DNA from: Patescibacteria group bacterium
GTDB lineage: Bacteria > Patescibacteriota > Patescibacteriia > Magasanikbacterales > GWA2-37-8
NCBI GenBank assembly: GCA_041649475.1
Contig: JBAZNA010000001.1
Location: 686,594 to 750,593 of the forward strand
Direction of reading: 5' to 3'
Length of the DNA stretch: 64,000 nucleotides
This document shows, piece after piece, positions 11,239 through 15,761 of the stretch (position 1 is the stretch's first letter; each line of letters opens with the position of its first letter). Both the position numbers and the translations under genes were made by a program. The notes beneath the pieces are model-generated. The model was not told the origin of the DNA and searched no databases. It saw only the letters and a program-made list of their open reading frames with translations.

Positions 11239-13425
11239 CTAGGCGGCCTTAAGCTTACGCTTTTTCGCAGTAGCTGGCTTATTTTTCTCCAGCAAAGCGT
11301 CTAAATCTGCCATAACCGTATCAAAATCTTTTTCATCTAAAAATCCTTCCTCTTCGGTGACCACCACAAAACGGCCGCCCTGATCTTCTCTAATTGTAAA
11401 ATTCAAAACCTGATCTAGTTTGCGCAGCGCTGACTCAATTTGTTTTGCTTTATCAATCCCCGCTTCTGATTTTGCCATGGCTTTTTTATGTTCTACCAAC
11501 CTATCACCGGTATTTGCCCTGTCCACTCTGGCGGAAACAATCCTGGCTCCGGTGCCGGGCAAGACCCCTTTTACGTCAAATAATAATTCAGCGTCAACCA
11601 AATGAGTCGGCAAAGCCAAAGTCAATTCGTCTCCGCCCACTTTGCCAAGAAATAGATCCTCCCCTTTGGCCAGTTTTTTCTTTTTTAACAACTCGGTGAT
11701 ATTTTGTCTGAATAATCGTAATCTTTCGGTCAGTTGGTCGCTGGCTTTTAAAACATTCTCTTGGAAGACCTTAACCTGTTCTTCTTCCGGTAAATTTTCC
11801 ACTTCCTCCAGCAACTGCTCATAATTTAAAAGTTGATCAACCCCGACATCAAGCAAATCAATACTTAAAATTGTGCAGTCATCAATTTTTAAAGCCCGGC
11901 TGGTAAATTCGTCATCGGAAGTGTACAGTTCTGATTTTTCACTTGATCTTAATGTTTTCACGACTTCCTGCCGTGTTTTGAGAGATGCCAACTTTCCTTT
12001 ATCTTTAATATCGCCGGCAAATTCCTGATTTTTTGATAATTTTTCCGTCAAAGTTGACCCGTCCGCCAATTTTTTACCTTCTATCTCGCCGGCAGTATGC
12101 GGTTTAACAAAATCCATCAAATTCAGCATGCGGTAATATAAAGTGAGCTTATCAAACAGAGCCGAATCTTGCGCGTGCAACTTGTCTTTTCTGACATCCC
12201 GAAGCAAATCCTTATTTAACGACCGGACACCATTTTTAATTTCAAAAATTTGGCGCTCTTCACCTTCCTCCGTGCGCACGGTATTTGTTGCCATTATTTC
12301 TTTACCCAACTTCGAGAAATTTTTTACAGATCGCAAAACCGCCGCATCAAAGTCCCCTTCTTGGCCTTCAAAAATTTTATAATCCGCCAAACCCAAACTT
12401 TCCGCCAGCCGGTGAATTTCCATTGCCCGGCTTAACACTGATGATTTTGCCACCGACAGGGCAATCTCTTTATTTATATTTTTTTCATCTGCTTCACCAA
12501 CCTCGCTCACCCCCGCATTGAGCCGGTAGCCGACACCCCTGAACTGTTCTTCAAATTCATCCAAAATTTGCTTCTTGGCTTTGCCTTCAGGCGTTTTTTT
12601 GTATGTTTTTAATAATTTATATATAAAACCTTCCTGTTCTCCGTTTTCTCCGGCCATGGCTTCATTCACCCCGGCGCTTATCTCACTAATAATTTCATTA
12701 ACATTTATTCCGGCTTCAACCAATTTAGCATTCGTTGTCTTGTCTATTTTTAAAACGCTGTTTTTATAGTCCTGGGCCAAAACTAAATTATCTATCTGTG
12801 CTTCATCCAGCTCGGGCAAACTTTTCAGTAAAACTTTTTTAAACTGGTCTTTTAAAATATTCCTGCCGGCAATTAACATTTCATCAACATGGCTCTGGCC
12901 GAAAACAACGTCATTTAGATGTTTAATTGTCAAAAATTTATCAGCCGGGACGGAAATGTTTATAACCACATCTCCCGGCTCCAGATTGCCGTAAACATTG
13001 CCCCAATCGCGCCGTTCAAGCATGGAAGCGGTCATCTTTTTTTCCTTATCATCCAAAATTTCACCTGTTTCCAGTTTCGCAAAAGCAATTTCAGCTGCGC
13101 CCGTTTTACGTTCTGTCTGACGCTGTTCGGCCGGGTTTACCCAATCCGGCCCCTTCATGGTCTCATGATATATCGCCTCGTTTTCCGCGTTCACCAATAA
13201 ATCAACTATTTCCATTTTAATGCCGTTTAGCTCGTCCATTTCCTCTTTATTCAATTTTAAAAATTCGGTCAGTTGCGCTTTAAGCGCCTCGTAGTGGCCA
13301 TTTAATTCTTTAGAATATTTTTCCACCATCGCCAAAAGCTCCCTGGCCTGCTCTTCGGCAGTCGGTTTGGCCGATTTAGGAACTGTTTGCTCTGATTCGT
13401 TTTTGGCAATCGCTTCTTTTCTCAT
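11239..13425 (-). CDS. Large (728 aa) coiled-coil protein with C-terminal divergent GGDEF-like palm motif
   Basis: Long K/E-rich helical N-terminal two-thirds. The C-terminal region (CTILSIDLLDVGVD...GEDLFLGKVGGDELTLALPTH) resembles the GGDEF core (IDIDHFKxIND ... RYGGEEFvvlLPnT) with a helical insertion. Last gene of a 4-gene operon; its start overlaps ORF 13422..13751 by 4 nt. Confidence 0.45.
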   Translation of the reverse strand: MRKEAIAKNESEQTVPKSAKPTAEEQARELLAMVEKYSKELNGHYEALKAQLTEFLKLNKEEMDELNGIKMEIVDLLVNAENEAIYHETMKGPDWVNPAEQRQTERKTGAAEIAFAKLETGEILDDKEKKMTASMLERRDWGNVYGNLEPGDVVINISVPADKFLTIKHLNDVVFGQSHVDEMLIAGRNILKDQFKKVLLKSLPELDEAQIDNLVLAQDYKNSVLKIDKTTNAKLVEAGINVNEIISEISAGVNEAMAGENGEQEGFIYKLLKTYKKTPEGKAKKQILDEFEEQFRGVGYRLNAGVSEVGEADEKNINKEIALSVAKSSVLSRAMEIHRLAESLGLADYKIFEGQEGDFDAAVLRSVKNFSKLGKEIMATNTVRTEEGEERQIFEIKNGVRSLNKDLLRDVRKDKLHAQDSALFDKLTLYYRMLNLMDFVKPHTAGEIEGKKLADGSTLTEKLSKNQEFAGDIKDKGKLASLKTRQEVVKTLRSSEKSELYTSDDEFTSRALKIDDCTILSIDLLDVGVDQLLNYEQLLEEVENLPEEEQVKVFQENVLKASDQLTERLRLFRQNITELLKKKKLAKGEDLFLGKVGGDELTLALPTHLVDAELLFDVKGVLPGTGARIVSARVDRANTGDRLVEHKKAMAKSEAGIDKAKQIESALRKLDQVLNFTIREDQGGRFVVVTEEEGFLDEKDFDTVMADLDALLEKNKPATAKKRKLKAA

Positions 13426-13751
13426 ATGCTTTTTATCTTTAAAAGAATAGTTTGCATTTTTTTAAAATCATTATCTTTGAGCGTCTGGGCGCGTTCACTG
13501 ATAAGTGCGTGATCTATTTTCTTTTTTTGCGCGGAAAATCTTCTTAAAAAATCTTTGTCCTGTTTTATTTTTCTGGCCAGCACTCCGGTTTGCCATTTTA
13601 TCGTATCTGCCAAAATATTTTTCAATTTAGCCAAACGTTCCGGCGCCAGCCCGGCTTTTACCTTATCTAAAATTTGAGCCCTAAATTCGGGCTCAAAAAC
13701 AAAAATCTGTTCAAGCAAATTTCCAATTTCATTATCGCCGTTTGCGGGCAT
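13422..13751 (-). CDS. Hypothetical small protein (109 aa), operon partner
   Basis: Tightly coupled: a 1-nt gap to the upstream GT gene and a 4-nt overlap with the downstream 728-aa gene. Basic and helical. Confidence 0.4.
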   Translation of the reverse strand: MPANGDNEIGNLLEQIFVFEPEFRAQILDKVKAGLAPERLAKLKNILADTIKWQTGVLARKIKQDKDFLRRFSAQKKKIDHALISERAQTLKDNDFKKMQTILLKIKSI

Positions 13752-15087: not shown

Positions 15088-15761
15088 ATACTATTAAATC
15101 GTTTATTTTTAGCAAATAAAAATCCCATTGTTCTGTCAAACTTTGAAGGAAATATTTGCACGCCAAAACCGTTTTCGCGCAGTTTTTGCTCAATTTGCTG
15201 ATATTCCTTACCATTATGATACTCCAAAATGATGAAATTTACCATATTTAAATCGCTGGCTTTAAGGTTTTCAAACACCTCATACTCCCCGCCTTCAATA
15301 TCCATCTTCAAAAGAGATATCTTTTTTATTTTATTTTGCCGGCAAAAATCCGCCAATGAATATGCTTGAACTTTTATTGAATTTTCCTTTATCTCCCCGT
15401 CAGCCAGTTTGTGATTATGCGAATCGGCGCTTATTTCCAATAATCTTTTGCCGCTTTCTCCCGCCAAAGCCCCGCTAATTACATAAACACCTTTCAGTTT
15501 ATTGGCTTTAACATGTTTTTGCAGTAATTTTAAATTGTTCGGTTCCGGTTCAAGCGCAAAAATTTTCGCCTTACCACCCAGCATTTTACAATAAAAAACA
15601 AAAAAACCGGCATGAGCGCCCACATCAACTATCGGATACTTCGCCGACTTGATCACAAAATCGGCCGCCCGGTATTCTTTATATTTAAAAATCTCATTAA
15701 AAACGCTGGCGTCGGCCTCATCGCGCAAATTAAAATGCCAATCTTTATAATTAATTTCCAT
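15084..15761 (-). CDS. FkbM-family SAM-dependent methyltransferase
   Basis: VDVGAHAGFFVFYCKMLGGKAKIFALEPEPNNLKLL is the typical FkbM motif. First gene of the operon (4-nt overlap with the next gene). Confidence 0.7.
   Translation of the reverse strand: MEINYKDWHFNLRDEADASVFNEIFKYKEYRAADFVIKSAKYPIVDVGAHAGFFVFYCKMLGGKAKIFALEPEPNNLKLLQKHVKANKLKGVYVISGALAGESGKRLLEISADSHNHKLADGEIKENSIKVQAYSLADFCRQNKIKKISLLKMDIEGGEYEVFENLKASDLNMVNFIILEYHNGKEYQQIEQKLRENGFGVQIFPSKFDRTMGFLFAKNKRFNSI

Follow-up and report, generated by a model that had tools for sequence, protein, structure and literature searches.

What kind of enzyme, if any, is the large protein that ends a four-gene operon in a member of the Patescibacteria? 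The gene encodes 728 amino acids (aa) at positions 11239..13425, on the minus strand, of a 64,000-nucleotide (nt) stretch of contig JBAZNA010000001.1 (assembly GCA_041649475.1), and this whole stretch is referred to below as the window. An earlier note, made from the sequence alone, had described the protein as mostly coiled coil with a divergent GGDEF-like motif near its C-terminus, co-transcribed with lipid- or sugar-modifying enzymes. The best-supported reading is that it belongs, as a founding-type member, to a family of the Thg1/GGDEF/Cas10 palm clade that has so far gone unannotated. We further propose, with a probability of roughly 0.5, that it is a Cas10-like enzyme working independently of CRISPR, either a nucleotide cyclase or an oligonucleotide synthase, whose activity and product we infer.

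The motif that drew attention to the protein, IDLLDVGVD…GKVGGDELTLALP, is indeed present, with IDLLDVGVD at residues 522-530 (11836..11862; all operon coordinates refer to the minus strand) and GKVGGDELTLALPTH at residues 594-608. In a full-length AlphaFold2 model built with a 66-sequence family alignment (mean predicted local distance difference test score, pLDDT, 89.5; predicted TM-score, pTM, 0.84), both parts fall in a catalytic-type palm domain at residues 512-672 (11410..11892), here called Palm2, which is delimited by the model, Foldseek, hhalign and conservation. The predicted layout is beta1 at 516-524, three helices, strands at 594-596 and 600-606, a helix, a strand at 627-635 and a long helix. 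D523 closes beta1 and, together with D526, is the putative metal-binding pair, supplying the upstream Asp that the earlier note had sought. The GGDE at 597-600 (11626..11637), read as GGDE(L/F/I/M) at 597-601, lies on the beta2-beta3 hairpin in the position equivalent to GG[DE]EF or GGDD. The helical insertion suggested before was also found, as three helices separate beta1 from the hairpin compared to two in GGDEF domains. Further conserved residues are placed around the same site, with G528 on the beta1 stretch next to D523 and D526, D563, T566 and R573 in helices, R628 on beta4, and H646, K661 and E664 on the helix at 639-669. Catalytic acids at beta1 and at the hairpin are likewise described for mCpol, Cas10 and GGDEF enzymes (PMC12657218), and the same work unified Thg1 with GGDEF and Cas10 in one palm clade.

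Structure and profile comparisons both agree with a GGDEF/Cas10-type palm. When the full-length model was compared to PDB with Foldseek, the top match was the Cmr2 structure 3ung (E=6.8e-4, prob 0.97, 610 columns), and 17 of the 18 top matches were Cas10 proteins (Csm1, Cmr2 and type III-D Cas10), including Csm1 6ifz at E=6e-3. These were followed by the GGDEF domains of SadC (4wxo, prob 0.98, TMt 0.49), DgcB (6ttr, TMt 0.53) and DosC (4zvf, TMt 0.45), and then by the class III adenylyl cyclase 4wp3. In the hhalign test, where slices of the family alignment were compared to five annotated diguanylate cyclases from E. coli K-12, the slice 495-640 aligned GKVGGDELTLAL with RYGGDEFIIVL at P=2.5e-5, while control slices gave P=0.08-0.65. 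The HMMER family profile placed GGDE on the GGDEF or GGEEF of 6eib in PDB, although at a non-significant E=2. As D523 ends beta1, GGDE forms the beta2-beta3 hairpin, and Foldseek and hhalign converge on the same clade, the motif is not an isolated match in a protein lacking a palm, and we consider it very likely, based on the predicted structure, that the C-terminal domain has a palm fold.

The conservation of these residues could be followed across a sizeable family. An exhaustive hidden Markov model (HMM) search over 1.84 billion representatives returned 107 cluster representatives, 68 of them at E<=1e-30, and most members are 630-790 aa long and align over nearly their full length. A single relative, 58% identical, came out of word-indexed searches, whether the query was the large protein or the 66-sequence alignment. 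In the 90%-identity collection the exact 728-aa protein is clustered under a 42-aa fragment representative, which may be the reason why word-indexed searches missed the protein and most of the family. Overall identity among the approximately 97 alignable relatives is 20-30%, and on this background K168, N171, G305, R412, K413, Y430, N435, D438, F507, D523, G528, D563, T566, G597, G598, D599, E600, R628, H646, K661 and E664 are each kept in at least 90, while G176, F394, N404, P442, S503, D526 and R573 are kept in 81-88. D523, G597, G598, D599 and E600 reach 95-97; position 523 is D in 96 of 97 and E in one, and position 526 is D in 83 of 97. Conserved acidic and basic residues on such a fast-evolving background indicate an active site, and the large protein is in our judgement likely to be catalytically active.

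A single representative, P0096 (938 aa), lacks GGDE; it has SGKT instead, E in place of D523 and neither K168 nor N171, and is probably an inactivated paralogue judged by these substitutions. Relatives were found neither among BFVD viral structures nor on IMG/VR contigs. Literature searches on DUF6938, on DUF4157 with GGDEF, on Cas10 or palm domains in Patescibacteria and on polymorphic toxins with GGDEF or Cas10 turned up no account of the family. The impression that the arrangement had not been reported before is supported in that neither a family model (Pfam, NCBIfam, PADLOC) nor a literature description was found.

The remainder of the protein is not a coiled-coil scaffold, as had been assumed. 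The model is globular alpha/beta (62% helix, 12% strand) and contains 15 beta-strands, and the longest of its helices measures 31 residues, which rules out the scaffold and replaces it with a conserved enzyme body. Residues from about 110 to 727 form this compact body, and only residues 1-110 are loose helices or disorder. In the domain map, the weakly conserved helical or disordered N-terminal region covers residues 1-109 (13099..13425; pLDDT below 50 at 1-19 and 81-106). Next come Palm1, a candidate degenerate palm lobe at 148-345 (12391..12984) proposed from the model and hhalign, and a middle domain of a small beta-sheet and helices at 346-511 (11893..12390), drawn from the model and conservation. 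After Palm2, residues 673-728 with the stop codon (11239..11409) form a weakly conserved small C-terminal beta-sheet and terminal helix. The near-invariant residues of the middle domain are F394, N404, R412, K413, Y430, N435, D438, P442, S503 and F507, and a Foldseek search with a sub-model of residues 110-510 yielded no fold assignment for it. In the model, the part preceding Palm2 is therefore best described as a probable degenerate first palm-like lobe and a middle domain carrying the invariant R412, K413, N435 and D438.

Whether the chain holds two palms depends on this N-terminal lobe. Its predicted layout is beta1 at 153-158, two helices, a hairpin at 215-227, helices, a strand at 303-308 and a long helix, i.e., the order beta-alpha-alpha-beta-beta-alpha-beta, and its motifs are SIKxLNDxxFG (K168, N171 and G176), an LxQDYK hairpin and GYRxxxG (G305). 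With hhalign, SIKxLNDxxFGxxxTD fell onto the FKxINDxxGHxxGD of GGDEF proteins at P=0.012. The lobe has no catalytic acids, as P160 occupies the beta1 region and QDYK the hairpin. The sub-model of residues 110-510 was predicted with a pLDDT of 93.4, and its weak matches are almost all palm enzymes (Pol kappa, Rev1, Thg1 and Thg1-like protein (TLP), a class III cyclase, Cas10 and reverse transcriptases). In addition, the Cas10 matches of the full-length model are collinear over 550-630 columns and rank above those to single-domain GGDEF proteins. We lean towards a Cas10-like two-lobe architecture, in which a degenerate N-terminal lobe would be paired with a catalytic palm. Slices around residues 113-141 (approximately 13003-13089) and 468-497 (approximately 11935-12024) also matched each other with hhalign (P=6.7e-4, 29 columns), a faint hint that the helices preceding both lobes are similar and might stem from an ancient duplication of a helix-palm unit.

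Compared to Cas10 (Csm1/Cmr2), the 728-aa protein is alike in size (approximately 700-750 aa) and in being a single chain, and Cas10 proteins are its best PDB matches over the collinear 550-630 columns. In both, the C-terminal palm is of the catalytic type and combines an Asp on beta1 with a GGD[DE] hairpin, catalytic acids are missing from the N-terminal lobe, and helical elements lie between the lobes and after them. However, the HD domain found in most, but not all, Cas10 proteins is unmatched in Pfam scans, the hairpin is GGDE and not GGDD, and there is no sequence-level match. There is also no CRISPR array in the 64-kb window, the annotated neighbours there and in the related loci examined carry no cas-family domain, and the partners are instead the 109-aa protein and the FkbM/glycosyltransferase pair. 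The protein may thus work like a Cas10 while not being one. GGDEF cyclases (PF00990; e.g., PleD, DgcZ and DosC) share the palm fold, the beta1 Asp and the GG[DE]E hairpin, after which come a hydrophobic residue and a beta-strand, and the KxxND..G..D-like motif of the N-terminal lobe also has its counterpart there (the P=0.012 alignment above). They differ in that the 728-aa protein has an extra helix between beta1 and the hairpin, has no RxxD I-site upstream of the hairpin when the sequence is read by eye, and carries a second lobe in the same chain, whereas GGDEF enzymes are homodimers of single palms. The mCpol/OptS enzyme of Panoptes provides a precedent for a Cas10-type palm outside CRISPR with catalytic Asp residues on beta1 and the hairpin, and is a minimal single palm which oligomerises and is encoded beside a membrane or CARF effector that binds and senses its product (PMC12657218). 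In contrast, the 728-aa protein is multidomain, has no PADLOC match, and no adjacent effector gene was seen.

The genomic setting gives further clues. In the window, the large gene is preceded by genes for an FkbM-family S-adenosylmethionine-dependent methyltransferase (225 aa, 15084..15761), a DUF6938 protein (444 aa, 13753..15087) which is a probable GT-B glycosyltransferase (GT) of the UgtP/MGDG-synthase/MurG lineage, and the small 109-aa protein (13422..13751), as given by the open reading frame (ORF) list and, for the methyltransferase, family models. The four coupled minus-strand genes proposed by the earlier note were borne out, including the junctions, which are a 4-nt overlap (ATGA), a 1-nt gap and a 4-nt overlap in order. 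A promoter-like site lies upstream of the FkbM gene (TTGAAA-16-TAAAAT, 10/12 consensus matches, 15797..15770), found by a consensus scan and thus a pattern match alone. Past the stop codon of the large gene, a terminator-like hairpin, CCACCC-TTGAAAAAA-GGGTGG followed by TTTTGTG (11182..11210), was read from the sequence and recovered by a scan. Together, the 5' promoter-like site and the 3' hairpin with its T-run delimit a four-gene operon. Window proteins are deposited in GenBank as hypothetical proteins (MFA5062184.1, MFA5062185.1).

The identity of the first gene product is solid, as the 225-aa protein matches PF05050 (E=7e-24, 85.3 bits against a cut-off of 22.7) and TIGR01444 (E=3e-27, 95.8 bits against 37.7) and is named 'FkbM family methyltransferase' at NCBI (MFA5062187.1). 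The 444-aa protein matches DUF6938 (PF22053, E=2e-11, 44.3 bits against 27), and its assignment as a GT-B glycosyltransferase is reasonable but not proven. It builds on two separate weak but concordant UgtP-type matches, one of residues 111-201 to the diglucosyl-diacylglycerol synthase model PRK13609 of NCBIfam (E=1.3e-4, 21 bits against a cut-off of 500) and one of residues 329-389 to UgtP in a profile comparison to PDB 9wde (E=5.7e-4). A G-x-G-H-type N-terminal motif (DMGYGHQRAA), read by eye, is a further likeness to the UgtP/MGDG-synthase/MurG enzymes; what sets the protein apart is that it scores below the curated cut-offs of these enzymes and is in Pfam just DUF6938. Its homologues, all named hypothetical, fill more than 7,500 Patescibacteria clusters, and PF22053 is carried by 120 of 120 among the matches listed. 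FkbM-GT is a widespread core pair that probably serves to make a methylated envelope glycolipid. In four other Patescibacteria loci (L006, L030, L031 and L032), FtsE/FtsX genes are found one to three genes upstream of FkbM-DUF6938, which hints at a cell-division or envelope neighbourhood for the pair.

To place the large gene in relation to this pair, we compared 17 genome loci, mostly from Candidatus Magasanikbacteria, and contigs of individual relatives. The loci were scanned with patterns from a 9-sequence alignment, since the 66-sequence one was too diverse, and synteny was scored by local iterative HMM searches. The order FkbM-GT-(small)-large or a close variant occurs in approximately 13 of 19 distinct loci. 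Besides the window, at least seven distinct loci, L030 included, have the full set of four, and four to five more lack the small gene or have GT and FkbM swapped. Among loci that extend far enough upstream, at least two have the small and large genes without FkbM-GT, and at least three loci have the large gene alone. In the syntenic loci, neighbouring genes are mostly separated by 15 nt or less. The linkage to sugar- and lipid-modifying genes is thus conserved in other Patescibacteria. Across eight complete loci, mean pairwise identity is 80% for the GT and 65% for FkbM compared to 46% for the large and 44% for the small protein, showing that the latter two co-diverge faster. A reverse check starting from GT homologues gave one locus with all four genes and two with FkbM-GT alone. 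As FkbM-GT also exists without them, the small and large genes form an accessory module that is often, but not obligatorily, located behind FkbM-GT. Stand-alone large genes have housekeeping neighbours, and no defence-island or mobile context was seen around stand-alone Patescibacteria members; the defence-type role raised before is therefore not indicated by the context of the Patescibacteria members.

The small protein had no family match in Pfam, NCBIfam or PDB searches, and a PADLOC match to PbeC was sub-threshold (E=6e-4). Fourteen ORFs of this type lie directly 5' of the large gene in the fetched loci, and where complete loci were measured the gap is -8 to +12 nt. We expect the 109-aa protein to be helical from its sequence.

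A second and unexpected setting for the module came from four distant relatives of 1,818-2,398 aa (P0092, P0093, P0094 and P0097), which carry an N-terminal eCIS_core domain (PF13699, formerly DUF4157), known from extracellular contractile injection systems (eCIS). The entire module is located near their C-terminus (positions of approximately 85-675 of the 66-sequence HMM, E down to 2e-53), and all key residues are kept. One of them is encoded in an eCIS-type locus that also includes two further eCIS_core proteins, Pvc16_N and an AAA ATPase. [quoted passage not shown] That excerpt does not mention a toxin domain of cyclase or palm type, nor did a term search find one in the main text of the eCIS toxin survey PMC11297309. 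Unlike these fusions, the 728-aa protein lacks eCIS_core by Pfam, and its neighbourhood in the window is not an eCIS locus.

All three eCIS_core relatives examined are followed, at -4 to +9 nt, by a gene for a protein of approximately 200 aa (190-226 aa; L003 17206-17886, L033 6111-6689 and L034 15460-16065). The three genes are mutually homologous (41% identity and E=8e-49 for two of them, otherwise E~1e-5), and the product is a candidate immunity protein or chaperone, in an arrangement typical of toxin-immunity pairs. It is unrelated to the 109-aa protein. The gene for P0097 (L034 2521-7390) adjoins genes for DUF2397, DUF2398 and an SMC-like ATPase, a set which we take to resemble a Wadjet-type defence locus.

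If the large protein is a nucleotide cyclase or oligonucleotide synthase, nucleoside triphosphates (NTPs) would bind in the cleft between the lobes, where Asp523 and Asp526 together with Asp599 and Glu600 would hold two Mg2+ or Mn2+ ions, and the conserved basic residues R412, K413, H646, K661 and R628 would hold the triphosphates. A ribose hydroxyl would attack the alpha-phosphate of a second nucleotide to give a cyclic or short linear (oligo)nucleotide. As in Cas10, the active site would be pseudo-dimeric within one chain, completed by the second lobe. That the product is a signalling-type (cyclic) nucleotide has in our estimate slightly less than even odds. The 109-aa protein would serve as a dedicated partner or regulator of the large protein. 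In Patescibacteria, mostly Magasanikbacteria, the module is usually co-transcribed behind the much more conserved FkbM and UgtP-like GT-B pair, which would link nucleotide production to envelope biogenesis. A comparable arrangement is the cdaA-cdaR-glmM operon of Firmicutes. We regard functional coupling to FkbM-GT as a tentative proposal.

Several results weigh against a Cas10-like enzyme coupled to the envelope. At sequence level, the large protein matched nothing in Pfam, NCBIfam or PADLOC, a Pfam scan of 66 plus 10 family members found no model matching any of them, and neither the single protein nor the profile found a significant sequence match in PDB, the best profile match being a GGDEF protein at E=2. 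PF00990 in particular was absent from the window protein at E<=1, from the 66 members at E<=0.01 and from 10 further members at E<=0.001. At structure level, TM-scores to Cas10 are low (0.15-0.20, with a root-mean-square deviation of approximately 20 A), and the match is thus collinear and local and not a rigid-body fit. The 110-510 sub-model had no significant match in PDB by itself (best E=0.35), and a test for internal duplication found no detectable similarity between the Palm1 and Palm2 slices (P=0.36). With these two values, the two-palm claim is not established. As for context, no receptor or effector of CARF, SAVED, STING or PilZ-like type was seen in any neighbourhood examined, stand-alone large genes had no CARF-, SAVED- or TIR-type effector beside them, FkbM-GT without the module and the module without FkbM-GT both occur, and the synteny could reflect lineage inheritance instead of functional coupling.

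The same observations can be read as a conflict module, in which the enzyme is toxic through NTP depletion or an aberrant nucleotide, small and large proteins are a toxin-antitoxin or immunity pair or an effector against a host bacterium, and the position behind FkbM-GT is incidental. The eCIS_core fusions are in line with this, as they keep the whole module and its key residues in a layout matching that of eCIS toxins in the PMC8213781 excerpt, one of them sits in an eCIS-type locus, and the three examined are each followed by a homologous gene of approximately 200 aa, as cognate immunity would predict. The separable small-large pair, which co-diverges approximately twice as fast as FkbM and GT, would also fit. 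However, the Patescibacteria proteins have neither eCIS_core nor another recognisable trafficking domain, and the N-terminal sequence, read by eye, shows neither a signal peptide nor a hydrophobic start. They are surrounded by housekeeping genes, with no mobile or defence island, the gene that follows the eCIS_core fusions is no relative of the small protein, the large protein has no PADLOC match, and no homologue was found on viral contigs. We therefore consider the conflict module unlikely as an explanation of the window operon. Signal and weapon are not mutually exclusive, as the same chemistry could serve as a signal in one lineage and as a toxin in another. A combined reading is possible but doubtful, where a Cas10-like two-lobe cyclase family would provide Patescibacteria with a signalling enzyme that has a small regulator and is tied to glycolipid synthesis, and would elsewhere be an eCIS toxin warhead with cognate immunity.

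Instead of a cyclase, the large protein might be a nucleotidyltransferase directed at nucleic acid or another substrate, e.g., a polymerase that needs no template, a 3'-5' adder like Thg1, or an enzyme that attaches nucleotides to a protein, lipid or glycan produced by the neighbouring FkbM and GT enzymes. Thg1 belongs to the same palm clade (PMC12657218), the N-terminal half has weak matches to Y-family polymerases, Thg1/TLP (TMt 0.30-0.35), TERT and LINE-1 reverse transcriptase, and the weak full-length matches include reverse transcriptases and, in BFVD, RNA-dependent RNA polymerases. Co-transcription with a glycosyltransferase and a methyltransferase would also suit a multi-step modification pathway. 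This is nevertheless improbable, since none of these fold matches is significant (E>=0.35) and the sole significant ones are cyclase-type palms, Cas10 followed by GGDEF; furthermore, Pfam scans detected no nucleic-acid-binding domain, and the module also occurs in contexts without GT or FkbM. Still less probable is a non-catalytic palm, acting as a nucleotide receptor or scaffold like a degenerate GGDEF domain (PelD-type) or as a structural partner of glycolipid enzymes. While the lack of a matching curated catalytic-family model and an N-terminal lobe without acidic residues (P160, QDYK) would be compatible with such a role, D523, D526, D563, GGDE and the basic set are near-invariant across approximately 97 relatives, toxin-type fusions included, and the motif is lost in P0096 only. 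Finally, the GGDE-like motif might be fortuitous in an unrelated helical protein, given that a short motif is weak evidence by itself and that the Pfam GGDEF model has no match. With GGDE invariant in the family and placed on the hairpin of a beta-alpha-alpha-beta-beta-alpha-beta domain, with Foldseek returning Cas10 and GGDEF, and with hhalign at P=2.5e-5 against controls of at least 0.08, chance is effectively ruled out.

Some features of the window lie outside the operon. Between its terminator and another hairpin with a T-run, a GC-rich island is found at 10705-11175 on the minus strand (0.55-0.56 compared to approximately 0.42 around it), with its own promoter-like site (TTGAAA-17-TATATT with TG, 11203..11175). 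It contains a 133-aa ORF with a TTG start and no Pfam match, has no Rfam match, and may represent either a structured RNA that has not been recognised before or a small gene of foreign origin. On the other side, divergent from the operon and 104 bp away, an ECF-type (extracytoplasmic function) sigma factor gene (Sigma70_r2, r4_2) is followed by a gene for a 397-aa protein without a Pfam match, possibly an anti-sigma factor or a target (15866-17632, plus strand); the sigma factor gene is not a conserved neighbour in related loci. The sole sizeable tandem array in the window, at 55067-55202, has a 21-nt period, approximately 5.7 copies and 76% matches, and is not CRISPR-like.

What is new is an unannotated family inside a known superfamily, whose architecture is unusual and which turns up in two contexts that were not expected. 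Cas10-type cyclases have been described in type III CRISPR complexes and, reduced to a minimal single palm, in Panoptes. A Cas10-like enzyme of full size that lacks CRISPR partners would, if confirmed, represent a new branch of nucleotide-based signalling or warfare and bear on the origin of the Cas10 architecture. Should the family indeed serve both as a signalling enzyme and as an eCIS warhead, it would define a new toxin class based on nucleotide synthesis and might be evolutionarily related to that architecture, adding palm-domain nucleotide synthesis to the enzymatic classes of eCIS toxins. For Patescibacteria, whose genomes are tiny and whose regulation is largely unknown, it would mean a previously unrecognised signalling or effector enzyme.

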